Counted from the first letter of the stretch, positions 12,701-49,072 are shown. The stretch is 64,000 bases of DNA from an uncultured delta proteobacterium (GCA_963736855.1 CAVTQK010000015.1:608001-672000); one strand, 5' to 3'. A program made the numbers and translations. The notes: generated from the sequence alone by a model not told the origin.

Positions 12701-12824
12701 GAATGAACGGAGTGAGCACCGCCTGGTGCTCGACATCGTTTTCATAAAGGAAACAAAGGTGGGCACCATGCCTCAAGTCGGCAAGGGTCTCCTTTAACGA
12801 TATCGTTGATTGGGGGTTATTCAT
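9711..12824 (-). CDS. Hybrid sensor histidine kinase (MEDS-GAF-PAS-PAS-HisKA-HATPase-REC)
   Basis: N-terminal HLCFLYE...FIRLGLERGEK (MEDS); NTHEWCAPG (GAF); AGGIAHDFNN H-box; GKGTGLGL; C-terminal ILFVDDE...TDMTMP. Confidence 0.92.
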   Translation of the reverse strand: MNNPQSTISLKETLADLRHGAHLCFLYENDVEHQAVLTPFIRLGLERGEKMLYITHDQTPEMILSYLADDGLDPVTLAENGRFSIVKAEEALLKSNKFDPETAIEWLKDQMQRALDAGYSALRITMEVTWVSQISESDAFRRFGDLLDTWVLNNKVLCLCQFDRRKMASVYLLHALTAHAVVIIGSQVFDNFYHIPPTERLGFVSEDTILDNWIQNLFKRKNAEEALESRIRFQQIITRLSANFVEAGETDVKINQALEAIGKFSGVDRAYLFQVRPDRRLIDNTHEWCAPGIEPQIASLQGISANEELPWFWEKMLAMETFHFSDVDDLSMEAQLEQNYFKTLGIRSLIVIPVASGGNIKGFLGFDSVQEPKFWSEDTVTLLKICSRIIGNILDRKEAEEKLHERETRYQRLTENLNIGVYRTSTLSKNQFFEANYAMARMFGYETLKEFLAVKPSDTFQDPEDLTRLIAKLTAQGQVRNEELKLLKRDKTPFVASTSIVAIKNSRGKIEYFDGVAEDITERKRIAESIYRSEKKFRDLFNAISDLVYTHDLEGRLLSFNPSFAHILGYEPEELIGQMASDFMKPELKTLFQEEYLKQILEKGSHQGVTVYCSKSGRKVYLEYRSVMVRPEDGNPFISGIGRDVTEKILSERKIKGLQEQILQSKKMEAIGTLAGGIAHDFNNILGIILGNAELALESVQEWSPVKHHLEEVQTASLRARDVVKQLLSFSRKTEQKRKPLKLSFLITESLRLLRASIPSNIAMITQIEEDVDPVLADPAQMHQVLINLCTNASHSMEDTGGTLTLGLGNHVVDAQMSIGSVSLTPGRYVKLLVSDTGSGIEAKYLDRIFDPYFTTKEVGKGTGLGLSVVHGIVKNHEGSIAVESTLGEGTDFSIYFPAYEGEVESVVEKKETLPTGSERILFVDDEELIVGIGCQLLERLGYRVEGQTNPIEALSLFLQDPHHFDVVITDMTMPYMTGDRLAQEILSVRPDMPVILCTGYSQKIDAFSASQIGIKYYIEKPLDRIELAKAVRNVLD

Positions 12825-12931
12825 CCATCATCCGCCAGGAAAGAAATTTTTTTTGCTTGGATCCATTGGATCTTTATGCTTTATTGACTATTCGGAATCC
12901 CGAAAATTGTCAATGTTAACCCTGTTGTTGC

Positions 12932-12978
12932 AAAAGTCAGAGGCAAAGTAAAATGTCCCAGATCCAAGGCGTCGCGAA
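12932..12978. repeat. Truncated, degenerate fragment of the 155-bp MITE
   Basis: AAAAGTCAGAGGCAAAGTAAAATGTCCCAGATCCAAGGCGTCGCGAA resembles the left third of copy 1. Confidence 0.55.
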
Positions 12979-13136
12979 CTTTTTTCTAATGATTGTCATG
13001 CTTATTTACGCGAACTGCACGGGTTGAACGAACTGCATAAAAGGACTTGTTGCTGGAACGGTAACGTGAAAAGCCTTCCTGTTAAAACTGCTAACTTCCG
13101 GTCGGAAACGTCGGAATTTTAAAGCGAGGCGCTTTA

Positions 13137-13547
13137 ATGAAAATTGCAAATGCTCTTGAATGCGAAGATGTTAAAATCGATCGATTCCCCTTTAAAGGGA
13201 AAATGCACCCCGTCATCGGTACAAGCATCCGTTGGCTTTCCCGCCATGGAGACGACGGGACCGGATACCCGGAATACGGGTTGCGCTATTTCACTATCCA
13301 GCCCGGCGGACAGATTCCGATCCACAACCATTTTTATCACCAGACCATGTTCATTTTGACCGGGACGGCCGAATGCCTCCAGTACGATCTGGAAACGGAA
13401 CAGATTGTCCAGCAGAAAGTGACCGGGCCCGGTGACTTCATCTACATCCCGAGCATGGAGCCCCATGGCATGAAAAATATCGGGGACACCCCCCTCACTT
13501 TTCTGTGTTGTATTGCCAATGTGTACGAAGAAAAACCGCATGCTTAA
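13137..13547 (+). CDS. Cupin domain protein
   Basis: PGGQIPIHNHFYHQTMFILTG and GDFIYIPSMEPHG cupin motifs. Confidence 0.88.
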   Translation: MKIANALECEDVKIDRFPFKGKMHPVIGTSIRWLSRHGDDGTGYPEYGLRYFTIQPGGQIPIHNHFYHQTMFILTGTAECLQYDLETEQIVQQKVTGPGDFIYIPSMEPHGMKNIGDTPLTFLCCIANVYEEKPHA

Positions 13548-13578
13548 GGATTTCACTGTGAGCTCAAGGCTTTCGGTT

Positions 13579-14292
13579 TCAGAAAGTCAATCCGACATCC
13601 GGGGATTCCCAGGAGATGGATGCGGTTGTGGCCTGGATGACTAGTCGGGCCAGGATCTCGCCGAAAAGAGTATGCTTGCCGCAGTACCGGATCCGGTGCT
13701 GATCTTCTCCACATGCCAAAGCGATGGCATCGGTGCCGGTTCCGGTGGCGATAGCGTCGGAAATCCGGCTTCGAACTCCGCAGGCCTGCATGGCGACCGC
13801 CTTGGCCTCAGTGGCGAGTGTGATCGTCTCTACCATTGCCGCAGGCGTTAACGCCGCCGAGGTGAGGATAGCCGTGTTGATGGTCCCGGCTCCGGGTATG
13901 GTGTTGTCGAGGCTTCGGTATTCGGAAAGATCCCCCGCTCGCATGGGATTGGAGAGTCCCGAAGTCACCAGTACGATCGTTTCTATGCCATGCACACGGT
14001 TTTGAGCAATTCTTAGGGAGTTCATCGATGCAGCCGTCATCATACCTACTGTTACCCCCTGCCATCCGAAGCGGTCACAATACTCAGTCAGGGTGTTTTC
14101 CGGCGGCTCCAATGGCGCGTTCGGATTTTTGGGGTGTTTGGGAACCCTGAGGTTTAAAATGGCATCCGCGTGCACCCAGCCGCCATTGAGCACAGCCGAG
14201 CTGAGCACCGGAAGGGGTTTTTCGAAGACAAGGCGGATATGGTCTTCGGTCCGTTCGAGTTGAAGGTAACAGTGCGTAATAATTGGAGTCAT
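13579..14292 (-). CDS. cbiZ: Adenosylcobinamide amidohydrolase
   Basis: LSSAVLNGG, VGMMTAA, GTIN, ATEAK, ATGTGTDA motifs of CbiZ. Confidence 0.88.
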   Translation of the reverse strand: MTPIITHCYLQLERTEDHIRLVFEKPLPVLSSAVLNGGWVHADAILNLRVPKHPKNPNAPLEPPENTLTEYCDRFGWQGVTVGMMTAASMNSLRIAQNRVHGIETIVLVTSGLSNPMRAGDLSEYRSLDNTIPGAGTINTAILTSAALTPAAMVETITLATEAKAVAMQACGVRSRISDAIATGTGTDAIALACGEDQHRIRYCGKHTLFGEILARLVIQATTASISWESPDVGLTF

Positions 14293-14458
14293 GGTTTACC
14301 TTTAGAAATCATAACGGTCAAAAAAACAGAATGCGATGGGCAACGCGAACCTTTTTCCAGAACGTATGCTTCGCCCAGATCTTATGATCGACATCGCACC
14401 GGTGGTTTTTTTACATTGAAACTCATTTAATTTTCCCATAGATTATGAGTGAAAAGTC

Positions 14459-15364
14459 ATGAAGATACGGCAGAAACACTCGGATGAATCCATTCCCAAG
14501 CCTTCGTGGCTGCGCCTTCGACTTCCCTCCGGAGGGGTATACGAGCAGGTGCGGTCCCTGGTTTCCGACGGCCGGCTTCATACGGTCTGTCAGGAGGCTC
14601 AATGCCCCAATATCTGGGAGTGCTTTTCTCACAGAACGGCAACTTTTCTGATCCTTGGAAATCACTGTACGCGAAACTGCCGGTTTTGCGCAATTGAACC
14701 GGGTCCCGGAGACCCTTTGCAAGCAGATGAGCCTCAACGTGTCGCCGAAGCAGCCCGGAAGCTTAATCTGAATTATGTCGTCGTCACATCAGTGACTCGC
14801 GACGATCTTCCGGACGGGGGTGCAGGTGTTTTTGCCGAAACGATTCATGCGGTCCGGAAAAGCATTCCGGATGTTAAGGTGGAGGTTCTGGTTCCGGATT
14901 TCAAAGGATCCAAAGAAGCCCTGATGACGGTTCTGAAAGCGATCCCCGATGTGCTTAACCACAACATGGAAACAGTCCGCAGGCTGTACCCCAGGGTCCG
15001 TCCCGAAGCTGACTATCAAAGATCTCTGCAATTGATTCGGCGCGTCAGCGAGAATGAGCCGGCCATTCAATCCAAATCAGGATTGATGCTGGGATTTGGT
15101 GAAACCGCTAAGGAGATCCGGGAAACCCTTACAGACCTCAGGTTCGCGCAATGCCGCATCCTGACTCTCGGTCAATACCTGTGTCCCGGCAAAAATCATC
15201 TTCCGGTGAGCCGTTTTATTCCCCCGGAAGAATTTGAAGAGTGGCGGAAAACCGCATTGCAAATGGGGTTTGAAGAGGTGGCCAGCGCGCCGTTCGTGAG
15301 AAGCTCCTATCGTGCGGATGCTTGTATCGGAAAGCAGCAAATGATCCAAAGCAGGGCGGTCTAG
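14459..15364 (+). CDS. lipA: Lipoyl synthase (radical SAM)
   Basis: CQEAQCPNIWEC plus CTRNCRFC, VTRDDLPDGGA, VRSSY. Confidence 0.96.
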   Translation: MKIRQKHSDESIPKPSWLRLRLPSGGVYEQVRSLVSDGRLHTVCQEAQCPNIWECFSHRTATFLILGNHCTRNCRFCAIEPGPGDPLQADEPQRVAEAARKLNLNYVVVTSVTRDDLPDGGAGVFAETIHAVRKSIPDVKVEVLVPDFKGSKEALMTVLKAIPDVLNHNMETVRRLYPRVRPEADYQRSLQLIRRVSENEPAIQSKSGLMLGFGETAKEIRETLTDLRFAQCRILTLGQYLCPGKNHLPVSRFIPPEEFEEWRKTALQMGFEEVASAPFVRSSYRADACIGKQQMIQSRAV

Positions 15365-15653
15365 GGAATGGAACGTATAAACGACAAATAATTCTCCGGT
15401 CGATTGCGTTGATCGCGATGTCGCCCTACTGGATTTGCAAAAATTATCCAAACCGGCTCGTCCCTGATTGCAAATTAATTTGGGAAAATACTCCCGGTTT
15501 TTCTCTTATAAAAGGAGAGCAGCATCGGGTCCGATGCCAGTTTTTAGCCTCTTCTTTGGCGATCTCTTTTGCTTTGGATAAATCCAGGTCCTTTTGGTTT
15601 ATGGTGATTTTGATGTGGTTTCCCCAAAACGAATCGAGTGCTTCGGGTGTCAT
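15361..15653 (-). pseudogene. Degraded AF1514/DUF5619-like small protein
   Basis: Fragments DLDLSKAKEIAKEEA, DPMLLSFY, EPVWIIFA and GDIAIN lie in different frames. Confidence 0.45.
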
Positions 15654-15765
15654 GGTTACAATCTCCTGTTTAGTATCTGCTCTCGAAAAGCACATTACCT
15701 GTCCTTCTGAATTCAATGCGGCTTCCACAGGAACACGGAAATCATTAAAGTAGGGATGGATCCAA

Positions 15766-16461
15766 TTGAAGGATATCATTGATTTGCCGGAATTCAAGGA
15801 CCGGATCCATGTTTTCAGTGACCGTGCCCATGCCGGAAAAATTCTGGCTGATATGCTCAAATCATATAATGATCCAGCATCCCTGATCTTAGCAATTCCG
15901 GCCGGCGGCGTTCCGATAGGTTATGAGGTTGCAAAAAGATTGAAGCTTCAATTGGATGTTGCTGTGGTAAGCAAAATAACGCTTCCATGGAATACAGAGG
16001 CTGGATACGGCGCGGTCGCCTTCGATGGAACCGTTCAGTTGAATCAAGCGCTCATAAAAGGATTGGGTTTAACCCAAAAAGAGATTAAAAAAGGAATCAG
16101 GGAGACCTCTGAAAAAGTACGGCGTCGCGTATTGAGGCTCAGGGGTTCCCGGCCTTTTCCGGATCTTAAAGGGCGAAAAATCCTCCTGATTGACGATGGG
16201 CTGGCTTCAGGATTTACCATGATGGTGGCCATTGAGGCGCTCCGAAATGCAGGAGCTGAAAAGGTCATCGTAGCCGTCCCGACAGCTCATTTGGAATCCG
16301 CACAAAACGTTCTTAGAACAGCCGATGAAATGTTTTCCCCCAATCTCAGGAGCGGCCTGCGATTTGCTGTTGCCAGCGCCTATGTTAGATGGTCGGATGT
16401 AACAGAAGAAGAAGCCATCTCCATCCTGGAGAGATTAGCTGCATACCCTCCAGCGGGATAG
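15766..16461 (+). CDS. Phosphoribosyltransferase family protein
   Basis: FSDRAHAG, LAIPAGGVP, LLIDDGLASGFTM PRPP-binding motif. Confidence 0.88.
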   Translation: MKDIIDLPEFKDRIHVFSDRAHAGKILADMLKSYNDPASLILAIPAGGVPIGYEVAKRLKLQLDVAVVSKITLPWNTEAGYGAVAFDGTVQLNQALIKGLGLTQKEIKKGIRETSEKVRRRVLRLRGSRPFPDLKGRKILLIDDGLASGFTMMVAIEALRNAGAEKVIVAVPTAHLESAQNVLRTADEMFSPNLRSGLRFAVASAYVRWSDVTEEEAISILERLAAYPPAG

Positions 16462-16564
16462 ATCCCCTTGCGGCTTTTTCATCGAAGCGAACAATTAAAA
16501 GTCCCGGCATTTTGAATTTTCTCAAACAGGCTGAGTGAAAATGGGAATCTTTAAGCGGCCCCGA

Positions 16565-17353
16565 TCACTCCGGCCGCTTGTTAATACGTTCTGCTTCAAT
16601 CAGTATGACTGCACTCATTGATCGCGGCATGATTTTCGCATCCAAAAGGGCGAACAGAGAAAAGATCCGATTACACCACTGAAAGAGGGGCACATAGATC
16701 CATGCCGGAACCGATGTTATAGCCGGTAATGACCGAGGTCGCTTTACCCTGCCGGTCAGGGTTATCAGGGAGATCGCCGTGATCATGGATATTTTTTCAA
16801 GCGGGCCCAGAACCTTTTCAAGTCTCCGGGGGGATAGCCCCGCCAGGTTCAATTTATGGCTGATATCCTCCAGGTTATATCTCCGGTAGTGATTGACATA
16901 GACATCGTCAAGTGCGAAGTAGGCGGCTCTGTGGGGAAATGTGATAACACAGCACCCTTCGGGCTTCAACACTCTTGCCATTTCCCGCAGTGCTGAAACA
17001 TCGTTTTCTATATGCTCGATGACTTCCGAGCTGACACAATGTAAAATTGTCCGGCTTTTAAAAGGGAGGGCGGTGCCGTCCGCGACAACATAATTCCCTT
17101 TGCCGAACACGCCTTTTAATATTTTTAATCCGGTGAGCGACACATCAGTATAGACGGTTCTCCAGGTTATGGCAGATACCGGCGAGATGCCGGAACCGAC
17201 CTCCACTACCCATCCGGAAGGCTTTTTTGCCAGAATGCCGGCGATGGCTCTTTTACGAAGAAGGTAGTTATAGAGATGATTTTTCAGAAAAATGTAGACA
17301 CTAGCCGAGAAAAAATCCTGGAACCTGTTGGATGGCCGTGCTGACGCATTCAT
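16565..17353 (-). CDS. Class I SAM-dependent methyltransferase
   Basis: VVEVGSG, ADGTALPF, SEVIEH, RVLKPEG, HYRRY; ATG 17353 overlaps the GT2 stop. Confidence 0.85.
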   Translation of the reverse strand: MNASARPSNRFQDFFSASVYIFLKNHLYNYLLRKRAIAGILAKKPSGWVVEVGSGISPVSAITWRTVYTDVSLTGLKILKGVFGKGNYVVADGTALPFKSRTILHCVSSEVIEHIENDVSALREMARVLKPEGCCVITFPHRAAYFALDDVYVNHYRRYNLEDISHKLNLAGLSPRRLEKVLGPLEKISMITAISLITLTGRVKRPRSLPAITSVPAWIYVPLFQWCNRIFSLFALLDAKIMPRSMSAVILIEAERINKRPE

Positions 17354-18135
17354 GTATTTTTTCGGATCGAGGGGAAGATGGCTGTTGAGAGCAATCCTGT
17401 TTTTGCCAGCCTGAACAGCATCGCTGTTTTCAGGCAACCCAGGCCGTAGATTATGCTGGGCCATAGCGAAATGGAGGATGCCTCCGCGAAATAGCGGGTA
17501 GGACAACTGATCTCGGCTACGGTGTATCCCGCCCAGATGACCTGGGCGATCATCTGGTTGTCAAACACGAACCCGTTATTGTTTGCATCCAGGGGCAAAG
17601 ACTCCAGAAGGCTCCTGGAGAAGGCCCGGTAACCGGTATGGTATTCCGACAGTTTGGCGCCGATAAGTATGTTTTCGGTAAGCGTCAGAAATCGGTTGGC
17701 GATATACTTCCAGAACGGCATGCCGTTTTTTAAGGCATATCCGCCAAGGATTCTTGAACCGAGGACACAATGATAAAGTCCATTGCCGATCAGGGAAGCC
17801 ATGGCTGGAATGAGCAACGGTGTGTACTGGTAGTCCGGATGCACCATAATGACGATATCGGCGTCGTTTTCAATAGCCAACCGGTAGCATGATTTCTGGT
17901 TGCCGCCATAGCCCAGATTATTTTCGTGGGTGTAGACAATCGTTTGGGGGAGTGTGCGGGCGATGGCGACAGTCTTGTCCGTACTGCAGTCATCAACGAT
18001 AATGACCTGATCGACAACTCCCTGGGCCATGACCTCTTCGAATGTCCGTTGAAGAGTTGCAGCCGCGTTGTATGCAGGCATTACGACGATGACTTTCCTG
18101 TCCTTATACATCAGGCAGAACCTCTTATTGCACAA
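17350..18135 (-). CDS. GT2 glycosyltransferase (polyprenol-phosphate sugar synthase-like)
   Basis: VMPAYNA, IVDDCSTD, NLGYGGNQK, HPDYQY, EYHTGYRAF. Confidence 0.9.
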   Translation of the reverse strand: MCNKRFCLMYKDRKVIVVMPAYNAAATLQRTFEEVMAQGVVDQVIIVDDCSTDKTVAIARTLPQTIVYTHENNLGYGGNQKSCYRLAIENDADIVIMVHPDYQYTPLLIPAMASLIGNGLYHCVLGSRILGGYALKNGMPFWKYIANRFLTLTENILIGAKLSEYHTGYRAFSRSLLESLPLDANNNGFVFDNQMIAQVIWAGYTVAEISCPTRYFAEASSISLWPSIIYGLGCLKTAMLFRLAKTGLLSTAIFPSIRKNT

Positions 18136-18388
18136 ATATCTTTAATCGGATTATGATTCAGCCGTTTGGGTTGTTCCCTTTTTCAAGATTATAGAATAGC
18201 AAATTGAAATGAAAATGACCACTGGTAATAGGTATTAGAAGGATCGAGGCTTTTTATCCCTCAAAATTCGTTGATTCGTCAATCCGCCGGCAACAGGATC
18301 GATTGCAGCATAACGATTTATTATTGAAGACGACCAAAAGATAGATTAAGCTTTGCTTTGATCTTTTTCCATGTGATGATCAAGCACT

Positions 18389-20242
18389 ATGATGAATGTA
18401 TTTCCGATAGCAAAGGGAGAGGTTTGCTCCCGCCTATACCTGACAATTCTGCTGCTGATTGTCGGCAGCTTTTTTGCTGTTTTTCTCGGGACCCAGCTTA
18501 ACCCGGACGGTATCTTATACTTTTCTTATTTGCGATCCGCGTTTTTCGACCGGGATATTCTGCTTGTCAATGAATTCAACGAACTGCAGTTATTGCCTTT
18601 GTCGCGCCATCTTTCTGCGACGGGACTGGAGGGTAACCCGGTAGCGATCGGGACCTCCATCCTGATGTCGCCTTTTTATGCAACCGCATTTTTAATTGAC
18701 CGACTTTGCGGGCTAATGGGCATTGATATCGGAGATCATGGATACTGGGGCATTTATCTTTACGTATTTCCTTTCGGATCGTTGTTTTACGGCTGTCTGA
18801 CAGGATGGATGATTCTGGGAATCTTGAAAAAACAGTATCAGCTATCCCATGCTGCACTTTCCCTCATGCATATCGTACTGGGTACGCCATTTCTCTTTTA
18901 TTTGGCTGTTCATTATCATGTTTCCCACCTGTGTTCGGCGTTCAGCGTGACGCTGTTCCTTTATCTATTTGAGACGGTCAGGAACGATGCAAGTCTGGCT
19001 GATCGCTATTCGACGCATTTTTTTCTTGGCGCGTTGAGCGGTGTCGCCATCCTGGTCCGGACCCAGAACGGATTATTCTGGATCATTCCTTTTTGTTTTT
19101 TATTATCCCGGTTATGGCATACCGGCAATTTTGGGCGCGTTATGATTCAAGGGATCTCTTTTCTTGCCGGCGCCATCATTGCGGTGTCCCCCCAGTTGAC
19201 GGTCTGGAAAATACTGCATGGAAGCTGGGTACATGCTCCTGAAGCCGCCAATGTTAATCTTTTTCAGCCCCGCCTGCTGGAAGTTCTGACGTCTTCCTAT
19301 CATGGTCTTTTTTTCTGGTCGCCCATTCTTATCATCAGCATTATCGGCCTTTGTTTTTTGGTGCGGATGGATGCAGATCGAGGTATTCCTTTACTGCTCG
19401 CGGTACTGCTGCAATTGATCATCAATGGCTCCATGCGCATGTGGTGGGAAGGGGCTTCATTCGGTTTGCGCCTGTTTATGAATTGCACTCCGATTTTTTG
19501 CATCGGGCTGTCTGTTGCATATACCCAGGTCAAGGCTTCATGGATCCGTATCCTGGGCAGTCTGCTTGTCTTCTGGACCTTCCTGCTGTATCTGAATGTG
19601 GTAACAGCCCGAATTGATCTTAACCGGTTTTATCCGGCCATGGAACTGATCCGGCTTCAAGCACGGCAATTTACCGGTCTGCTGTTTCTGCAGAAACCGG
19701 ATGCATATCTGGCCTTTTTAAAATCCCTGGGGGGTTCGGCGATCCTGGTAGCAGGAGTCGGCATCACGATCATGGCCATAATGCGCCTTCGGAAAACCCT
19801 AATCGCTATTATTGACCATAGACAGTTATCGACTTTTGGCGTCATGGGGGTGCTGATCGCCGGTATGGGCCTGTCCGGCCTGATTTATTTTCTGGGAATC
19901 AACAGTCAGCATCACAAGCGTTTCTGGCAGGACGACCTGAAAAGAATTGAAAGCGGCATGAACAGCTATTCTTTGTTTTATATCGACTATTGGTTTTACG
20001 TCATGCACGCCGAATATTTAGCCGCCCTCGGCCGGGAATCGGAAGCGATTCATGAATACTGGAAGGCGCTTCAAATATATCCGACTCCAGGGCTGTATCG
20101 GAATTTAACTTATCTGCTGGCAAAAAGGGGCCGCCATAAAGAGGCAGGGGATGCTATTCGGCAGGCGCTGGCACGCTGGCCGGATGATCCTCATTTGATC
20201 AAGCAGGAAAAATGGCTGCACGCCATAAGACCGGTGCCATAA
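18389..20242 (+). CDS. Polytopic membrane protein, probable GT-C glycosyltransferase with C-terminal TPR
   Basis: N-terminal DGILYFSYLRS loop, many TM helices, HGLFFWSP, WWEGASFGLR, C-terminal TPR-like helices. Confidence 0.65.
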   Translation: MMNVFPIAKGEVCSRLYLTILLLIVGSFFAVFLGTQLNPDGILYFSYLRSAFFDRDILLVNEFNELQLLPLSRHLSATGLEGNPVAIGTSILMSPFYATAFLIDRLCGLMGIDIGDHGYWGIYLYVFPFGSLFYGCLTGWMILGILKKQYQLSHAALSLMHIVLGTPFLFYLAVHYHVSHLCSAFSVTLFLYLFETVRNDASLADRYSTHFFLGALSGVAILVRTQNGLFWIIPFCFLLSRLWHTGNFGRVMIQGISFLAGAIIAVSPQLTVWKILHGSWVHAPEAANVNLFQPRLLEVLTSSYHGLFFWSPILIISIIGLCFLVRMDADRGIPLLLAVLLQLIINGSMRMWWEGASFGLRLFMNCTPIFCIGLSVAYTQVKASWIRILGSLLVFWTFLLYLNVVTARIDLNRFYPAMELIRLQARQFTGLLFLQKPDAYLAFLKSLGGSAILVAGVGITIMAIMRLRKTLIAIIDHRQLSTFGVMGVLIAGMGLSGLIYFLGINSQHHKRFWQDDLKRIESGMNSYSLFYIDYWFYVMHAEYLAALGRESEAIHEYWKALQIYPTPGLYRNLTYLLAKRGRHKEAGDAIRQALARWPDDPHLIKQEKWLHAIRPVP

Positions 20243-40115: not shown

Positions 40116-40353
40116 CTGACTGAAGGAAACTTTTTGTCATGAAACGAGAAATATTGAAGATAATCGAAACCACGAACACTTGGAAAAACTAAAAAAACCA
40201 TCAATTGGTCCCGTATCGAATCCATTCTATCGAGCCATTATGTCGTAGGCACCATCGGGGAAGGCGCCGACGTCTATCCGTTGCTGCTGTATAAGTGCCT
40301 GCTCCTCCAATAATGGTTCTGGATTTCCTCTTATCCGGAACTGGAAAACCAAA

Positions 40354-40637
40354 TTCACCCGGTTAAATAAGATTTGAGTCTCCTTCTTAAAAAACATCCG
40401 GCCATGGTATGATTTTAAATATTTTTCACGCCTTGACGCGTCTTCCTGATGAATACAGGCTTCATAATAAATCAACTTCAATGGCCTCCTATCCTTGGTG
40501 GATTCCACAAGGCCTTTTTGATGCTGCTCAAATCTTTGCTTGAGGTTTTTCGAAATCCGACATAAAAATCACCGTCTTTTTCGCTTTGGAGAACGTATGT
40601 AAAAACCATCAAACCTCAAGCAATTTAACCGGGTAAA
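40354..40637. mobile_element. Putative GIY-YIG element bounded by 15-bp inverted arms
   Basis: TTCACCCGGTTAAAT (40354-40368) and ATTTAACCGGGTAAA (40623-40637), 14/15 complementary. Confidence 0.6.
40355..40609 (-). CDS. Small standalone GIY-YIG nuclease (two compensating apparent frameshifts)
   Basis: MVFTYVLQSEKDGDFYVGF, NLKQRFEQHQKG, STKDRRPLKLIYYEA, ASRREKYLKS, ending RLKSYLTG*. Confidence 0.82.
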
Positions 40638-40777
40638 AAGAACTTCGAGAAAAAAGCCAAACCCCGGAAGGAAACTCGATAAAAACGGCAAGCCAAAAAA
40701 TTATACTCGAGATCTGGAATCCGGCTGGAATGCCAAGGATGAAAAGAATCCTCATTATGGGCTGAAAGAGCATACCT

Positions 40778-40885
40778 CGGTTTGAACGAAAAAAGGGTTA
40801 CATTGCACAAATCCGACCTCAAAATTTTCTGAAAAATTTTCCAAAAAGCTAAAATCCGAAATCCAGGTGATTTTTCAAACCTCTC
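40778..40885. mobile_element. Isolated IS terminal segment
   Basis: Similar to 42759-42866; ends TTTTCAAACCTCTC. Confidence 0.55.
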
Positions 40886-40944
40886 AGCCTAAAAGAAACT
40901 GCCTCTACAGTGCCTCACAGAAATGAAATCTACGTCAAAACAAA

Positions 40945-42169: not shown

Positions 42170-42866
42170 CGGTGATCAGACTACGTAGCCGTCAGGCGTC
42201 GCCAGACACCCATAACGGCTTCATCCTGGCTGCCACTTTGCCCTGCCTCGGAACACGATACCAATTATTTCCAATATTGCACCGCTTTCTCTCGGCCGAT
42301 ACGAAATGGCCGATTATAAAGGCGTACGCCGACAAGGCATATTTTGGAGAGCCAAAACGGCGCTTTCTTCTGCACAAAACAATTCGAAGACGGCATCATG
42401 AGAAAAGATACGACGACGGCCAAGTGACTCCCTATGAGAAAGCAAGAAACAAAAAGATTTCCAAAATCCGATACATCGTTGAAACGATACTTTGGACTGA
42501 GTCATCTTCACGATCATGCCTATCGGGCAAGGTTTACTACCATCGTTAAAAATAACCTCGACTGCTAGTGCAGACAGGTTTACCCCGTTACATTCCGAAG
42601 GACTATTAACCGGGGCAGGATTCAACATAAAACGAGGATTGAGAATTCTAAAGCTGGCGTTCATATAAATACAGCAGAGGTGTGTACAAAGAATAAAATC
42701 AAAAGAATTAAACATCGAAAATGATGAAATCGAAACGAAATAGAACCGCCATCTCTTTCGGCTTGAACGAAAAATTGGTCAAACCGGATAAAACGGCAAC
42801 AAAATTTTTCTGAAAAATCTCCTAAAAAGTTAAAATCCGAAATCTGAGTAAATTTTCAAACCTTTC
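42170..42866 (+). mobile_element. Degraded IS5-like transposase 3' half and right end
   Basis: YADKAYFGEP, RNKKISKIRYIVE, RARFTTIVKN, FNIKRG in broken frames; terminal TTTTCAAACCTTTC. Confidence 0.7.
42579..42615 (-). repeat. 37-bp palindromic element inserted in the transposase remnant
   Basis: Reverse complement CCCCGGTTAATAGTCCTTCGGAATGTAACGGGGTAAA has the same ends as the P1-P4 palindromes. Confidence 0.65.
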
Positions 42867-43044
42867 AGATTCCGGAGGACGTTCGAGTTTGCTTTGAGGC
42901 TGTAAATAATCGTATCGGTGTCGAGCAAAAACATCACAAACCTTTTCGGAGCTTGTGGGAAGCGCGGCGTGCATTTTTAAGTTCCGAAACGATTTGCGCT
43001 GCGGTCCGGGAATCTTCCCAAGAGCCTGCGAGAGAAAGAAGGGC

Positions 43045-43122
43045 TTGGAAAGACGGGAATCCCGAGCTTGCTCCAAATCTCGTTCCGCCTGACGGAACCA
43101 GTCATGTGAACGATTCGGAATA
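43045..43122 (-). pseudogene. 5' remnant of the HEPN gene at 45769-46158
   Basis: CGTTCCGCCTGACGGAACCAGTCATGTGAACGATTCGG is near-identical to 46118-46155; ATG replaced by ATT. Confidence 0.8.
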
Positions 43123-43127
43123 TGTTT

Positions 43128-43156
43128 CTCACAGAGCCCATAGAGGGCGCAGAGGG
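43128..43156. repeat. Cassette boundary R1 (three CRYAGAG units, 9-bp period)
   Basis: CTCACAGAGCCCATAGAGGGCGCAGAGGG. Confidence 0.9.
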
Positions 43157-43309
43157 TTTTTCAGATTCGCAGGCTGCGCATTACATATTCGGCCAAATCC
43201 ACTCGTGAAACATCTGGGTTTTAGGCTATCATGTCGAGATAGAGAATCGATCAAGTAGCTTCATTATAAGACGTATAACGACGATGGATCATGTTCGGGG
43301 AAAAAGGTT

Positions 43310-43696
43310 TTACTTTTTGCCATTCCTTATTTCCGAAAGTTCGTTGCTCATTTTTTGAATGGCTTCTCTTAGCCTTGGGATATGGTTCGCACAGATGTCA
43401 AAAATAATTTCATGGTCAACATGCTCGTAGTGGTGAGAAACCAGATCTCGAAACCGTGCAATCTTATCCCATTCGATCTCAGCATAACGGTTTAAAAATG
43501 GTAAATCCTTCTTCTGTATTTTCTTCACCGACTCACCGATGATTTGGAGCCTCATTGAAATTGCATCCAACAGTGTGACCCCATCCGATGTTGACACAAA
43601 ATCTCCAGATTCAGCGATCTTTGAAAATCGTTCCTGCACAAGGCTGATTGAGTCGAGCAAAACATCCAGAATCTCAACAATTTCATCTTCAGACAT
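43310..43696 (-). CDS. HepT/DUF86 HEPN ribonuclease toxin
   Basis: LQIIGESVK, IEWDKIARFRDLVSHHY (Rx4H), VDHEIIFD. Confidence 0.88.
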   Translation of the reverse strand: MSEDEIVEILDVLLDSISLVQERFSKIAESGDFVSTSDGVTLLDAISMRLQIIGESVKKIQKKDLPFLNRYAEIEWDKIARFRDLVSHHYEHVDHEIIFDICANHIPRLREAIQKMSNELSEIRNGKK

Positions 43697-43979
43697 AGTG
43701 GATATCTCTCTCAATTCGTTTTAAAAAGCGTTCGCTCAGCCCCTTCCTCTTACGAATTAGCTCGACCGGTTTCCCCAATCTGTTTTCGAGATATATATGC
43801 AGTCCGGCTAGGTAATCAAAACGAGCTTCGGTTAGTTCAACAAGCAAATCGATATCGCTATCGGGTTGGTGTGTTTCTTTCGCGTGGGAACCGAAAAGCC
43901 CGATGGCCAAGAGACCGTATTTATTCCTAAGATATTGCTTTTCTGAACGTAAAATATCCAATATTTCTTTGCTGGTCAT
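43689..43979 (-). CDS. MntA-like minimal nucleotidyltransferase antitoxin
   Basis: IGLFGSHAK...DSDIDLLVE; overlaps the DUF86 gene. Confidence 0.9.
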   Translation of the reverse strand: MTSKEILDILRSEKQYLRNKYGLLAIGLFGSHAKETHQPDSDIDLLVELTEARFDYLAGLHIYLENRLGKPVELIRKRKGLSERFLKRIERDIHYV

Positions 43980-44002
43980 GATTTTTTTCGTAAGAGGGGC
44001 AT

Positions 44003-44031
44003 CTCACAGAGTTCGCAGAGGGCGCAGAGGG
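44003..44031. repeat. Cassette boundary R2
   Basis: CTCACAGAGTTCGCAGAGGGCGCAGAGGG. Confidence 0.9.
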
Positions 44032-44059
44032 TTCAAGTGTTTGGAGAGAATCGATATCC

Positions 44060-44638
44060 TTATTTCTTCGACAAAGAAAGGTTTCGGAAATGCGTGTTCC
44101 ATTCTTTCAGGAGTCCTTTATTGTCGATTTTTTCCATCAGGACCCTGAAATCGATTTGATCTCCGGAGAGCTCAAGGATACCGCCGATATCGTTTAAATG
44201 TTTTTCTGAACCGCCTTCATGATAATATTCCAGCTTGCGCAGAATAACATATTCAATGGGGGCGATCCAGATCGATTCCCCTTCAAAACGGATCTCTTTG
44301 CGCTTGTTGAGTGCCCACTGGTGAAGCTTGCTGTTGCCCATTGGGTAAATGTCGGCCTTGAAACCCGTTGTATGATGAATCAGGTTGAAGTGACCGCCTG
44401 ATGGCCTTGAAATTTCGATTTTGATGATTTCCGGTGGCGGGCAATAAAATTCTGAAAGAGGAAAGACTTCGGTAAAGCTTCCGATATTAAAGGGTTCCAG
44501 ATCGATCACAAGATCGAGGTCATGGGTTAAGCGGGGTTTACCGTATATAATGGACGCCATTGCCCCGGTGACCATGTAGCGAATTCTCAATTGGTTGAAC
44601 CGGGAGATGAATATTTTCAGAAGATCAAGTTCGGGCAT
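44060..44638 (-). CDS. Nucleotidyltransferase-fold protein (AbiEii/DUF6036-like)
   Basis: YMVTGAMASIIYGKPRLTHDLDLVI; ILRKL...SEKHLNDI. Confidence 0.75.
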   Translation of the reverse strand: MPELDLLKIFISRFNQLRIRYMVTGAMASIIYGKPRLTHDLDLVIDLEPFNIGSFTEVFPLSEFYCPPPEIIKIEISRPSGGHFNLIHHTTGFKADIYPMGNSKLHQWALNKRKEIRFEGESIWIAPIEYVILRKLEYYHEGGSEKHLNDIGGILELSGDQIDFRVLMEKIDNKGLLKEWNTHFRNLSLSKK

Positions 44639-44816
44639 AGAGGAATATTTCCTTGACCTTGTTTTGGATTTGTTCGTCCGTCCAATCGGGATGCTGCAGA
44701 CGCAACCCCGCTTCTTTCAGTTTATGTGCACAAGAATACAGATCCAGAAAAAGCCTTAGTTTTTGTTCCGGATTTAATTTTTTTAGGAAATCATTTTGAG
44801 ATGGATTTTCTGTCAT
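44625..44816 (-). CDS. Small partner protein upstream of the nucleotidyltransferase
   Basis: LKKLNPEQKL...AGLRLQHPDWTDEQI; overlaps the downstream gene start. Confidence 0.65.
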   Translation of the reverse strand: MTENPSQNDFLKKLNPEQKLRLFLDLYSCAHKLKEAGLRLQHPDWTDEQIQNKVKEIFLYART

Positions 44817-44844
44817 TCCAATGGCTCTAATTTTTCTTCGGTCC

Positions 44845-44873
44845 CTCATAGAGTTCACAGAGGACGCAGAGGG
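44845..44873. repeat. Cassette boundary R3
   Basis: CTCATAGAGTTCACAGAGGACGCAGAGGG. Confidence 0.9.
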
Positions 44874-45061
44874 TTTTTCAGATTCGCAGGCTGCGCATTA
44901 CACATTCGGCCAAATCCACTCGTGAAACATCTGGGCTCAGGCTATCGCGTCGGGATAGTGAATCGATCAAGTAGCTTCACTATAAGATGTAGAACGACGA
45001 TGGATTATGTTCGGAGAAAAAGGTTTTACTTTTTGCCATTCCTTTGATGTGTTCTCCGCGT

Positions 45062-45388
45062 TCACGACCTGTGTTTATTCGGGTTTAATCCCTTTGTTGA
45101 AAATTTAAGCAACAAAACCGACTCTCGCGCTTTTTCCACCAAGCGGACTTTTTCTGGCCAAGTGAGCGCACGGAGGTTTTTTTGCCGGAGGGCATACCGA
45201 TTCAGCAAAAACGATATTTCATTTAATACATAAAGCCCTTCTGACTCTGGCACCCCAACCAAAACATCAATATCCAAAGTTGCTACCGGTTCGGCATACC
45301 GTATCTGCGCCATTGCGCCAAATATGGCGTAATTGATGATCACCTCCTTCTTGACCATCTCATTCAGCAATTCAGCTAGTTCTTTCAC
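45062..45388 (-). pseudogene. Probably deleted/fused nucleotidyltransferase-partner remnant
   Basis: N-terminal YAIFGAMAQIRYAEPVATLDIDVLV motif but only 108 aa; C-terminus LTWPEKVRLVE resembles small partner proteins. Confidence 0.5.
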
Positions 45389-45446
45389 ATCACCTCTCTT
45401 TAAGAAAGATAGGTATTGCGATTAAAGGTATCTTGCTGTCTATTTA

Positions 45447-45812
45447 TCACTGGTCACGCTCATAGACCCAGTTTACCTCTTCAAGCAGCATTCGGCTGAA
45501 GCGAGTGTTCGGATCCATTGCTTTCCACTCTGAAAGGGTATAGACTAGCACATCTGCAGGAACCGGCAGCTCGGAAGTGTCCCAGGCGATCCCTCGGCGC
45601 ACAAAAGGTTCATTGGACTTTTCCACAATAATAATGAGATCCAGGTCGCTTCCCACGCCCCAGTCACTTCGTGCCAAAGAGCCAAAATACCCGATACGTA
45701 CCACTTCGGGTCTCATGGCAGCGACCTCTGCCGCCCAAGTCTCAAGGCGGCGCACCACTGTATCTTGATCAGGCCATCGCATTACGGACGAAGTCAAGGA
45801 TCTCACCGGCAT
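45447..45812 (-). CDS. MNT nucleotidyltransferase
   Basis: IGYFGSLARSDWGVGSDLDLIII, PADVLVYT. Confidence 0.88.
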   Translation of the reverse strand: MPVRSLTSSVMRWPDQDTVVRRLETWAAEVAAMRPEVVRIGYFGSLARSDWGVGSDLDLIIIVEKSNEPFVRRGIAWDTSELPVPADVLVYTLSEWKAMDPNTRFSRMLLEEVNWVYERDQ

Positions 45813-46158
45813 ATTGGATCGCCTCTTTACTTTGTAAAGGTCCATAATGTTCAAAGGGCGCCCCTTCCGGATGCCCGTTTGGGTATCGTGGCGGAATGTA
45901 ATAGGCATCGAGAACCCGGCCTTTCTCGATAAGATCTTCAGGGATGCGGATTGTTTTCGGCAGTTCGATCAGAAGTTTGGCGATCACGTGGCCCCACGCC
46001 TCTTGGCCCAACTTCAGATGAAGCGCTTTCACCACCTTTTCCGCTGACTGCTGAGCCGCAAAACATGCCCATTCATGCCGGCCGGAAAGACGAGAATCCC
46101 TGGCCTGGTCTAAATCCCGTTCCGCCTGACGGAACCAATCATGTGAACGATTCGGCAT
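45769..46158 (-). CDS. HEPN domain protein
   Basis: WFRQAERDL, ACFAAQQSAEKVVKAL, WGH, YIPPRYPN. Confidence 0.9.
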   Translation of the reverse strand: MPNRSHDWFRQAERDLDQARDSRLSGRHEWACFAAQQSAEKVVKALHLKLGQEAWGHVIAKLLIELPKTIRIPEDLIEKGRVLDAYYIPPRYPNGHPEGAPFEHYGPLQSKEAIQYAGEILDFVRNAMA

Positions 46159-46164
46159 GTGTTC

Positions 46165-46193
46165 CTCACAGAGCGCGCAGAGGGCGCAGAGGG
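46165..46193. repeat. Cassette boundary R4
   Basis: CTCACAGAGCGCGCAGAGGGCGCAGAGGG. Confidence 0.9.
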
Positions 46194-46350
46194 TTCAAGT
46201 GTTTGGAGAGAATCGATATCCTTATTTCTTCGACAAAGAAAGGTTTCGGAAATGCGTGTTCCATTCTTTCAGGAGTCCTTTATTGTCGATTTTTTCCATC
46301 AGGACCCTGAAATCGATTTGATCTCCGGAGAGCTCAAGGATACCGCCGAT
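46194..46350 (-). pseudogene. Duplicate of 44032-44188 (3' end of the 44060-44638 gene plus tail)
   Basis: 157-bp copy with no differences seen by eye. Confidence 0.9.
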
Positions 46351-46428
46351 TTTGAATAGATTCCAATACCGATGTCACTAAGACCTCGTTCCAAGTAAAT
46401 AACAAGGGACTTTTGAAATTTGATTACC

Positions 46429-46833
46429 CTAAAAAAGCTTATTGCGAACAAAGGCCAGTGTCAGATCCGCCATGCGAAGAACTTCCAGGGCAACCGGCTT
46501 GGTATAAATTTTTGCCGGAATGCTATCCGGCAATCCATTCGGATAGCGAGTTGGTATATAATAGGCGTCCAGAGGGGCAATTTTTTCTCGAAGTTCGTCA
46601 AATCCTTTATCAATTTCTGAAGCCCATCGACAAAGAGCCTCAACAGAATGGCCGACAACGAATTCTTCACCTTGCGCATAGAGAAATGCTTTGAGAGCTT
46701 TTTCGGCGATTTGTTGACCGACAAAACACGCTAAATGATAGCTGCCACCATCGAAGAGCAATTTCGCCCCTTTTCTGTCGGCTTCGGCTTGTTCTATCCA
46801 GCGGAGGCCTTCGGCCATAGCATCACGCTTCAT
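46429..46833 (-). CDS. HEPN domain protein
   Basis: WIEQAEAD, ACFVGQQIAEKALKAFL, GHSV, YIPTRYPN. Confidence 0.9.
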   Translation of the reverse strand: MKRDAMAEGLRWIEQAEADRKGAKLLFDGGSYHLACFVGQQIAEKALKAFLYAQGEEFVVGHSVEALCRWASEIDKGFDELREKIAPLDAYYIPTRYPNGLPDSIPAKIYTKPVALEVLRMADLTLAFVRNKLF

Positions 46834-47200
46834 AGAGGATTCTCCCCGTCTTCATCGCACGTTTGAGGAAAGGGTTGTCTTTCATTTTTTTTATTTCTTC
46901 AGGGGTATATACGAGCAAGTCGACTCCGATCCTCGGTTTCAATTGCCGGTAAACCGCACCTGTTCTGTCGAGAAAATCCAGTCCGCTGTCGATAACAATA
47001 ATGAGATCCAAATCACTGGAAAGGGCGGTATTGCCGCTGGCAACGGAGCCGAAAAGAATGACTTTCCGGGCTCCCATTTTCACTGCTTCAAGGGTTAACC
47101 GCTCGGCCTCTTCATGCAGGTGTTGTATATGGGATTCTTTCCGGCTTTTTAAACGATCCCTCAACTGCTTGGTCTGGTGATAGTTCATCTGACCGGTCAT
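46823..47200 (-). CDS. MNT nucleotidyltransferase
   Basis: VILFGSVASG...SDLDLIIV, VDLLVYTPEE. Confidence 0.9.
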   Translation of the reverse strand: MTGQMNYHQTKQLRDRLKSRKESHIQHLHEEAERLTLEAVKMGARKVILFGSVASGNTALSSDLDLIIVIDSGLDFLDRTGAVYRQLKPRIGVDLLVYTPEEIKKMKDNPFLKRAMKTGRILYEA

Positions 47201-47338: not shown

Positions 47339-47530
47339 TGATGAAATCGTAACAAAGCTATTTTTGCTCGCTTCGTGACCATTTTCGGGAGATGCTCACG
47401 GCTTCTCTAAATTTCAAGAACTCGGCGCAAGCGCCTCAAACAGCTTGAAATTATTAACGCTCAGCCGTTCGCATCTCTTTTTCCGAAAATGCTCAAACCT
47501 CGCTTGCAAAAGCTTTTTACGAAGCCATCA
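47339..47530. mobile_element. MITE-like element with the same TIRs but a different, strongly self-complementary interior
   Basis: TGATGAAATCGTAACAAAGC ... GCTTTTTACGAAGCCATCA; nested inverted segments inside. Confidence 0.7.
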
Positions 47531-47771
47531 AATATGAATCCGAAAAATCAGCTCAATAAAAGACGGATTGCAGTACGCTTTAAAAACAGTGCCAAGCCCT
47601 TGAATCTGTTAACAGCAAATCGCATGATTTTAAATGGATAAGCCTATCATTAAAAACTAAAGTAAGAGAAAAATATCTTAAATCGATAAAATAGGCAATA
47701 AAATAATATGGTTTCCTGTTGTTCGATCGATATGGCAAAAGAGTAGAAGGAGGGTAGAAAAAGGCAAAAAA

Positions 47772-49072
47772 TTACCGACCATGCTTAGATTCGGGGGAGG
47801 CGGCAATCGCCATGATAACCGTGAACAACAGGGCGTTGGCTGGAATATGAAGATTGAAATCGGAGATGCTGTGGACCATAATGGCGACGATGCCTGCCAT
47901 GGCCCCGGCCGTGGTTCCCAACGTCAGTCCGCTATGATTGGGTAATTTTTGAAACCCGATGCGAAATAGCAAAAACAGTCCCCAGATCACAATGGGTATC
48001 CAAAAAACGCCCAACTCAGCGGTGAATTGAAGATAATCGTTGTGCGCGTTATAAAATCGAGCCCAAAAACCCGGAGGCTGATACTGGGTAAAAATCGTTG
48101 AAAAGGTCCCCGGACCGCTTCCCAGCAAGGGATAATCGAGAATCAAATTCAGAATCCCTTTCCAGGCGGTGACGCGACTTTGATAAGAGCCGATTTTTTC
48201 TTTCTGCTCGAAAGTGAGGACCCTTTCCACGGTCGTTTCGCTGGAAAGTGTGATGATACCGAACAGGAAGATGGCAGCAATACATATCAGAAGGATCTTT
48301 TTAATGCTCAGAGACTGTTTTGCGCGCATGATAAGCAGGATAAAAAAGGCGCTCCCGGATTAATGCCCCGATCCAACCGCCCCTGGAAAGTGATAAAAGC
48401 AGGGCTGTCACCAAAAAGGTCAGGAGAACAGAAAAAAGTACAAATTGGCCTCGTTTCAAGCCTGATGCAAGCATTCCCAAGAGCAGAGGAATAGCCATCT
48501 CCATATACCCGGCAAAATGGTTATAATGAAAGTAGGTGGAAGTCAGAGCATCGTTGAGGTACTCTCCATGATGTCTCGTAGGCCCACCATGAAAAGGGAT
48601 TGGCGCCGGCCCATTTGAATAGGCCGAAGACCGCCAAGAAAGTCGCAACACTTACGATCATAATAACGAGAGTGTGGATATGTTTTTTTTGATTACAGAC
48701 CTGGATGACCAGAAAATAGATTGCAATATAATTGACCAATTCCACAACGGCCCAAAAAGAAAGACCTCGATGGACGGAATTAAGACCGGAAATGAGGCTC
48801 AGAAGCAGAATTGCTGCAATGGGTTTTGTCAGAGGGGTTATAGTCCATTTTCCATCCCACCTGAAGATCTTTTCCATAAAGAAGCTTGCCAGGGCCATGA
48901 GGGTAAGGATATGCATGAGGGTGATCGCCCAAGCCGGGACGGATCCTTTAGGAAGAGGGGTGATGATGAGCAGCAGATAGATGAGAAGACGAGGCAGCAT
49001 CCCCGGACTTATTATTTTCTTGCCGTCCGGCGAGTGCGCTGCATGATTGCTTTGAATGGAATTCACGCTCAT
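47772..49072 (-). CDS. O-antigen ligase/Wzy_C family membrane protein (several apparent frameshifts)
   Basis: YNHFAGYMEM, LSLSRGGW, YPLLGSGPGTF, AHNDYLQ, HSISDFNLHIPAN. Confidence 0.85.

Follow-up and report, generated by a model that had tools for sequence, protein, structure and literature searches.

Whether toxin-antitoxin genes are moved as cassettes at a short repeat is the question raised by a locus of an uncultured delta proteobacterium. The locus lies in a window of 64,000 nucleotides, the whole stretch of DNA that was analysed (GCA_963736855.1 CAVTQK010000015.1:608001-672000), and comprises an array of HEPN and nucleotidyltransferase genes at 43045-47200, in which a 29-bp repeat occurs four times and the sequences abutting it recur in new combinations. 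An interpretation made from the sequence alone, in the following called the sequence-only reading, had proposed that the genes are cassettes which excise, insert, and reorder by recombination at the repeat, like integron cassettes. Our analysis points to a different answer. The repeats match one arm of a widespread mobile element, and as likely relic element ends in a toxin-antitoxin island they probably act as short-homology crossover points, alongside ordinary deletions.

The four 29-bp sites were found where the sequence-only reading had placed them, at 43128-43156 (R1), 44003-44031 (R2), 44845-44873 (R3), and 46165-46193 (R4), all on the plus strand. The chance expectation for the pattern was 0.00, and four or more matches occurred in none of 100 shuffled sequences. 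A scan of the 3.9-Mb genome gave no copies beyond R1-R4, even when 3 mismatches were allowed. Each site consists of three C(A/G)CAGAG units, i.e., tandem direct heptamers with a 9-bp period. The arm, as we call the repeat from here on, folds weakly and is itself neither a palindrome nor a hairpin. Within 900 nt of R1-R4 no inverted partner above the shuffled level was present, leaving only singlets in the window, and a search for a degenerate left arm beside them found none. There were no Rfam matches in 40-48 kb, and promoter and terminator scans gave scores at or below the shuffled level, with no promoter- or terminator-like match overlapping any arm.

On the plus strand, the sequences to the left of the arms are referred to as outer flanks (C, C', D, and E) and those to the right as inner flanks (A, A', B, and B'). 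The abutting pairs are C'|A at R1, E|B at R2, D|A' at R3, and C|B' at R4. The array contains the following features, where X1 and X20 are independent sequencing runs and G003 is a congener:

43047-43127, minus strand: C', 5' stub of a paralogous HEPN gene and outer flank of R1 (88% identity to 46084-46164)
43128-43156, plus strand: R1, solo arm of the CACAGAG-nonamer type, bridged by an X20 contig
43157-43328: A, degenerate spacer (85% identity to G003 over 43201-43294)
43310-43714, minus strand: HepT-like RNase toxin with RX4HXY motif (PF01934, E=9e-20), last codons running into A
43689-43979, minus strand: MntA-like antitoxin with GSX10DXD motif (PF01909, E=2e-10), its 5' end forming flank E
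44003-44031, plus strand: R2, solo arm at the E|B junction, found by pattern scan
44032-44188: B, 3' end of the gene for a 192-aa nucleotidyltransferase plus 28 nt (99% identity to 46194-46350)
44060-44638, minus strand: 192-aa nucleotidyltransferase-like protein, no Pfam match of its own
44625-44858, minus strand: Rv0078B-related antitoxin (PF18993, E=2e-8; likely start ATG at 44816), its 5' end forming flank D
44845-44873, plus strand: R3, solo arm at the D|A' junction, bridged by an X1 contig piece (44159-45019)
44874-45044: A', second copy of spacer A (91% identity to A)
45062-45388, minus strand: 108-aa chimera, two separate genes in G003
45447-45845, minus strand: MNT protein of a class II HEPN/MNT pair (PF01909, E=4e-8)
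45769-46158, minus strand: HEPN protein (PF05168, E=1e-30), its 5' end forming flank C, ATG 6 nt from R4
46165-46193, plus strand: R4, solo arm at the C|B' junction, bridged by an X1 unitig (46082-46350)
46194-46350: B', orphan nucleotidyltransferase 3' end, cut at 46350 away from the repeat, with the same distal junction in X1

When 40-48 kb was searched against itself, the duplicated blocks described in the sequence-only reading were the only internal duplications between 43.0 and 47.2 kb, namely the arm with A (43128-43328 and 44845-45044, 91% identity), the arm with B (44003-44188 and 46165-46350, 99%), and C with the arm (43047-43158 and 46084-46195, 88%). In all three blocks, one end coincides with an arm edge (rough P = 3e-5 to 1e-3), as had been proposed, but the opposite ends (43047/46084, 43328/45044, and 44188/46350) fall within genes or coincide with no repeat. 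In the window, breakpoints off the repeat were located at 43047, 43328, about 45225, and 46350. Two of the junctions originally listed, C|A and C|B, stand, whereas "A|B" and "B|A" named segment starts; the real flanks there are E|B and D|A', where E (the 5' end of mntA) and D (the 5' end of the Rv0078B-like antitoxin gene) are both unique gene starts. The proposed location of the sites upstream of minus-strand gene starts applies to C, D, and E, but R1 abuts C', which is regarded as a pseudogene stub because its start reads ATT, whereas its paralogue has ATG.

Six public sequencing runs, none identical to the window, were compared with it; runs with small word shares (X6-X19, X21, and X22) were left out. 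X4 provided two pieces only, neither at an arm, and X3, which had depth across R2 but no bridging piece listed, was not counted. The junctions at R1 (X20 contig) and at R3 and R4 (X1), or close variants of them, were bridged in independent runs, and therefore the duplicated blocks are not an assembly artefact, an objection that the sequence-only reading had raised against itself. X1 also bridges the far end of B'. For R2 (E|B), no bridging piece was present among those listed in the six runs, and this junction was seen only in the window assembly.

The joints differ between the runs. In X20, full-length C adjoins a B that extends further than B' (16.5x), the partner of A is a longer HEPN gene (4.4x), and E is followed, exactly at 44032, by 82 letters unlike B (7x); this loose end resembles the tail of a GxxExxY gene in G003. 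In X2, C is joined to A'. In X1, HepT-MntA is hardly covered, and a C-type end is joined to B, skipping the 875-bp R1-R2 unit; a 269-nt unitig consisting of C, the arm, and B' reached 43.5x compared to about 17-28x on neighbouring pieces. A clean excision of the R1-R2 unit was considered for X1 and dropped, since the alleles on the shared unitig are of the C type, not of the C' type. Exchange through the longer C and B homologies could also account for the 875-bp difference. Further breakpoints off the repeat were located at 44217 in X20 and at 45019 in X1, and taking window and runs together these were just as common as changes at the repeat. A second objection raised at the outset, that related genomes might show a fixed gene order with breakpoints unrelated to the repeat, thus applies in part: many breakpoints are off the repeat, but the junctions at the repeat vary between runs.

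The alternative junctions bear on exchange within the arm itself. The inner flank joined to E in X20, a GxxExxY-type tail, was termed G. At the same distance from the arm, both A and G contain TTCAGATT, an agreement in 8 of 8 bases (chance 1.5e-5), and for this reason they were treated as one type. The pairings present are then A with C (R1, X20, and X2), G with E (X20, 7x), B with C (R4, X1, and X20), and B with E (R2). Because the flanks share no other homology, at least one crossover took place within the 29 bp, unless identical breakpoints recurred. In addition, the three outer flanks C, D, and E start at the same base of the arm, and identity begins at the same base in every pair, which suggests that an element end may have been joined enzymatically to new targets.

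As judged by sequence, R1-R4 match the right arm of a widespread CACAGAG-nonamer element, and they are likely solo arms left by a mobile element whose full form would carry a GxxExxY gene with a nuclease fold. The sequence-only reading had overlooked that its repeat is one arm of a widespread element linked to GxxExxY. A looser arm pattern was found in 16 of 61 genomes (the own genome and 60 relatives) and the reversed control pattern in none; among the matches listed, related patterns occurred across many phyla and in viral contigs. From the collection scans for arm patterns, 80 of the 119 and 80 of the 133 loci listed were analysed. At the same locus of G003, the arm directly follows a broken GxxExxY gene of the PD-(D/E)XK type (TIGR04256, 63.7 bits at a cut-off of 35; PF13366, E=1e-34), and this remnant and the arm lie between the same ligase-like gene and an IS5 remnant. 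The comparison of orthologous loci covers this one genome, because among five congeners a closely related ligase orthologue was present in G003 only (65%); in three others the values were 30-39%, and the fifth had none. Inspection of 30 GxxExxY loci by eye placed an arm of this type no more than 130 nt downstream in 7 of them and showed related nonamer arrays at about ten others. GxxExxY was found in 13 of 15 arm-positive compared to 20 of 45 arm-negative relatives (Fisher p=0.006, the kin not being independent), and this is the kind of nuclease or recombinase co-occurrence which the sequence-only reading had pointed to as informative. No GxxExxY gene was found in this genome, nor inside the window.

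In two further genomes, G056 (locus L376) and G034 (locus L375), similar arrays were recognised by eye, in which related repeats separate toxin-antitoxin and GxxExxY genes and duplicated modules occur in a changed order. In L376 (G056:C35:468000-482000), CACGAAG-type arms and tandem 67-84 nt hairpins separate toxin-antitoxin genes, bacteriocin-like nuclease tips, and two GxxExxY copies of near-identical sequence; a PIN module and GxxExxY occur a second time in the opposite order, with their ends in the repeats. In L375 (G034:C32, positions 12000-19000 of the locus), three GxxExxY genes are interleaved with MNT-HepT, RelE/ParE, and a four-helix-bundle gene, and repeats of several types stand between the genes. 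Two Acidobacteriota genomes (L062 and L080) contain several solo arms of the same orientation, 1-2.4 kb apart and with different flanks, which are possible arrays. A Terriglobia contig (L070) holds about 20 tandem arm-containing units of about 109 bp with variable spacers and a CRISPR-like period.

The present structure most likely arose in three steps. The outer end of the element would have been attached immediately upstream of start codons at three or more targets (C, D, and E), as suggested by the common base at which identity begins in all pairs, with GxxExxY as the candidate enzyme. The nuclease gene and the left arm would then have been lost, and local duplication would have multiplied the arms. 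Finally, host slippage, annealing, or RecA would have acted between arms 0.8-1.3 kb apart, or between strains, giving new pairings such as B with E and A with C; a dedicated recombinase would not be needed. Host recombination between nearby short direct repeats is documented as both RecA-dependent and RecA-independent (PMC4627823).

Several points weigh against crossovers at relic element ends. Two pairings come from a single source each: B with E is found only in the window assembly, and G with E derives from one X20 contig with 82 loose letters, 30 of them shown. All runs were compared as contigs, not as raw reads. The four-way test assumes homology of A and G from 8 bases; treated as separate types, they leave the junction graph without a cycle, and one-sided breakpoints alone could build the junctions. 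The loss of the R1-R2 unit from X1, with its C-type unitig, is no clean R1 x R2 excision. The longest perfect match between two arms is about 18 bp, which is short for RecA. In a survey of classified arms, from which 25 arms near locus edges were set aside and to whose hairpin counts L070 contributes about 20, GxxExxY was directly inside 1 of 200, and most arms were empty hairpins (inverted doublets) or solo. For this reason, the arms need not each come from a gene-bearing copy.

How far the array could still be a true cassette array depends on its sites and its cargo. An integron cassette array without a neighbouring integrase (CALIN) would be served in trans, and four integron integrases above the TIGR02249 cut-off are indeed encoded on other contigs (C13, C21, C22, and C24); none is located at this locus, as the sequence-only reading had noted for the window. 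The small co-oriented toxin-antitoxin genes also resemble cassette cargo. However, attC sites feature a GTTRRRY core and an imperfect palindrome (PMC8876359), and R1-R4 have neither the core nor a hairpin, in agreement with the earlier statement that they are not attC palindromes. A relaxed attC scan was empty over 43047-46350 yet detected a plausible attC hairpin beside the C21 integrase (G000:C21:745920-745995); a strict scan, which found nothing in the window and no convincing control site, was uninformative, and the relaxed version was used. The CALIN explanation is therefore very improbable. In an integrase-free cassette system, a GxxExxY nuclease would cut the arms and drive excision, insertion, and reordering, and the window would be a relic that has lost the enzyme. 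Consistent with such a system, the outer edges are exact to the base at three different targets, X1 and the window differ by 875 bp, the size of one arm-to-arm unit, and GxxExxY co-occurs with arms and is present inside similar arrays in G003, G034, and G056. We nevertheless consider it unlikely, since GxxExxY was not found in this genome, 3 of 3 duplicated blocks are partial, and the spacer bases of recombinant arms switch at differing positions in X20, X1, and X2 with no fixed base. The cargo argues in the same direction. No arm was present within about 1.5 kb of homologues of either the 192-aa protein (12 loci in 11 of 250 other genomes) or the HEPN protein (13 loci in 12 of 250), i.e., at 0 of 25 homologous toxin-antitoxin loci in the order, whereas both positive controls from the window showed arms; the cargo thus travels without the repeat. 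Of the proposed reordering by recombination at the repeat, there remains that junctions change at this site (full-length C with B, likewise in full length, full-length C with A, and E with the GxxExxY-type tail). The partial blocks and the homologous loci argue against both a mobile unit extending from repeat to repeat, against which the many off-repeat breakpoints also speak, and an integron-like system, for which attC is missing at the sites. Doubtful, too, is an undescribed gene-capture system in which the PD-(D/E)XK protein GxxExxY would cut the arm end, seed arms upstream of gene starts, and build arrays order-wide.

At the other extreme, the repeat could be a passenger in a mosaic produced by segmental duplications, one-sided deletions, and exchange across the longer homologies of A, B, and C, with no crossover in the arm. 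The depth of the X1 unitig indicates a duplicated segment that straddles the repeat, and the many breakpoints off the repeat would also be expected. This explanation is quite improbable, because B with E, taken together with G with E and B with C, share no homology but the arm, the three outer flanks begin at the same base, and 3 of 3 blocks end at an arm edge. That the blocks were created by the assembly has already been largely refuted and is hardly credible: E|B is unbridged by any listed piece in the six runs, but the copies differ by 1-12%, the junctions at R1, R3, R4, and the distal end of B' are bridged independently, and the C-arm-B' unitig of X1 has about double depth.

The island is located in a cluster of glycosyltransferase, deacetylase, and O-antigen-ligase genes, an exopolysaccharide locus, with a G+C content of 43-48% compared to 53% for the contig. 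All array genes are encoded on the minus strand. Besides the repeat-bounded part, the following features were identified:

42215-42867: IS5-like transposase remnant at the left edge of the island (DDE_Tnp_1, E=2e-4, below cut-off)
46429-46833, minus strand: HEPN protein, not repeat-bounded (PF05168, E=1e-24)
46823-47200, minus strand: MNT protein, not repeat-bounded (PF18765 and PF01909), forming an MNT-HEPN pair with the preceding gene
47339-47531: repeat of about 193 bp resembling a miniature inverted-repeat transposable element, at the right edge and unrelated to the arms, with 38 near-full-length copies elsewhere in the genome

Copies related to the IS5-like remnant are found in other parts of the genome and at the corresponding locus of G003. 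At 40120-40890, a weak GIY-YIG fragment (below cut-off) is nested among IS5-like fragments, for which there are further matches to contig C21 and to the remnant. Short reading frames at 42860-42960 are cut by the remnant and have no Pfam match; by eye they are presumably an antitoxin 3' end and a PIN-toxin 5' end. The copies of the right-edge repeat fall into two identity classes of about 93-98% and 74-81%. An O-antigen-ligase-like gene at 47772-49072 is split into three open reading frames, and several polysaccharide genes at 28-39 kb appear as overlapping short ones, reflecting either decay of the locus or indel errors of the assembly.

Within the array, the adjacent PF01934 and PF01909 genes at 43310-43979 carry the two motifs, RX4HXY and GSX10DXD, that define class I HepT/MntA pairs (PMC7641770), and are thus predicted to form a class I (type VII) pair. 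The NCBIfam equivalog scores of this pair, including that of NF047752 for the antitoxin, were below cut-off. The 192-aa protein is probably the toxic partner in a MenAT-like pair; among 120 listed homologues, 5 have PF08843 or PF09970. The 108-aa chimera appears to be a nucleotidyltransferase N-terminus fused by deletion to a downstream small protein; its breakpoint is not at the repeat, and loose ends of X1 at 45222/45227 match the undeleted form. Longer versions of C' are present in X20 and X1. The first 11 nt of spacer A resemble the tail after GxxExxY in G003 and X20. No Pfam match was found in the three minus-strand frames of either copy of A, and a metagenome scan with a 20-nt motif of it gave two matches, both chance hits on unrelated contigs. 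A 46-nt piece of A stands alone in an intergenic region of the congener G005 (L045 753-798), and A may therefore include the remnant of another small repeat.

A description of this repeat or of repeat-joined HEPN/MNT arrays was not found in openly licensed papers or bioRxiv preprints; we thus appear to be dealing with a known kind of repeat-mediated shuffling by a repeat apparently undescribed in that literature. The cargo consists of one class I HepT/MntA pair, two class II HEPN/MNT pairs, and one Rv0078B-type pair, and resembles known HEPN/MNT islands, for which clustering and recent gain and loss have been described, while the available text of these reports names no sequence element at module borders (PMC7641770, PMC2701414). 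Toxin-antitoxin islands are known to cluster and to turn over fast; here, one repeat marks some of the module joints, and the strain data show exchange at this repeat. The uncharacterised GxxExxY family thereby gains a testable substrate and a visible effect on its neighbours.

In its mode of working, the array is closest to the PeSL cassettes of T4-type phages (Arbiol et al., 2010; PMC2839356), where copies of a short repeat are scattered over a hypervariable region with small accessory genes; modules are shuffled when the copies recombine, and no dedicated recombinase is mentioned in the abstract. Gene content likewise changes here by recombination between copies, as seen from the alternative arm junctions, two pairings being single-source. 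In contrast, PeSL are units of promoter and stem-loop terminator in phages, and the arms are heptamers in a bacterial chromosome with neither of these; excised circles were shown for PeSL, whereas the runs were compared with the window array as contigs, and the listed pieces included no A|E joint. REP, REPIN, and BIME sequences with RAYT genes share with the arm family the occurrence as short intergenic inverted doublets, singlets, and clusters, although the window has singlets only, and RAYT genes flanked by terminal inverted repeats are another case of repeats flanking a candidate mobilising gene (PMC3337134, PMC3733652); BIMEs are also associated with recombination (PMC3184786). The arms are, however, no 20-40 bp palindromes with a GTAG or CGTC tag, the linked gene is the PD-(D/E)XK-type GxxExxY and not a Y1 HUH transposase (the genome has three Y1_Tnp matches, none near arms), and the four copies all lie in one island. 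Integrons and CALIN share co-oriented small genes rich in toxin-antitoxin systems, a site between units, and gain, loss, and reordering between strains (PMC8876359), and differ in that the arms have no GTTRRRY core, palindrome, or linked integrase, the units are partial, and homologues of the cargo lack the site. The tandem hepta- and octanucleotide sites of Geobacter metallireducens, also a deltaproteobacterium, are intergenic, built of short tandem units, and often paired on opposite strands at variable distance; they have another consensus and are read as regulator sites, with no link to GxxExxY or shuffling in the available text, and the supplementary alignments could hold this repeat family (PMC2700814). 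In summary, the array appears to work like PeSL- and REP/BIME-linked shuffling while belonging to neither of these nor to the integrons. With host recombination alone at work, it would be the chromosomal equivalent of the shuffling known from PeSL or BIME; should the nuclease be required, cassette arrays would be built here in a new way.

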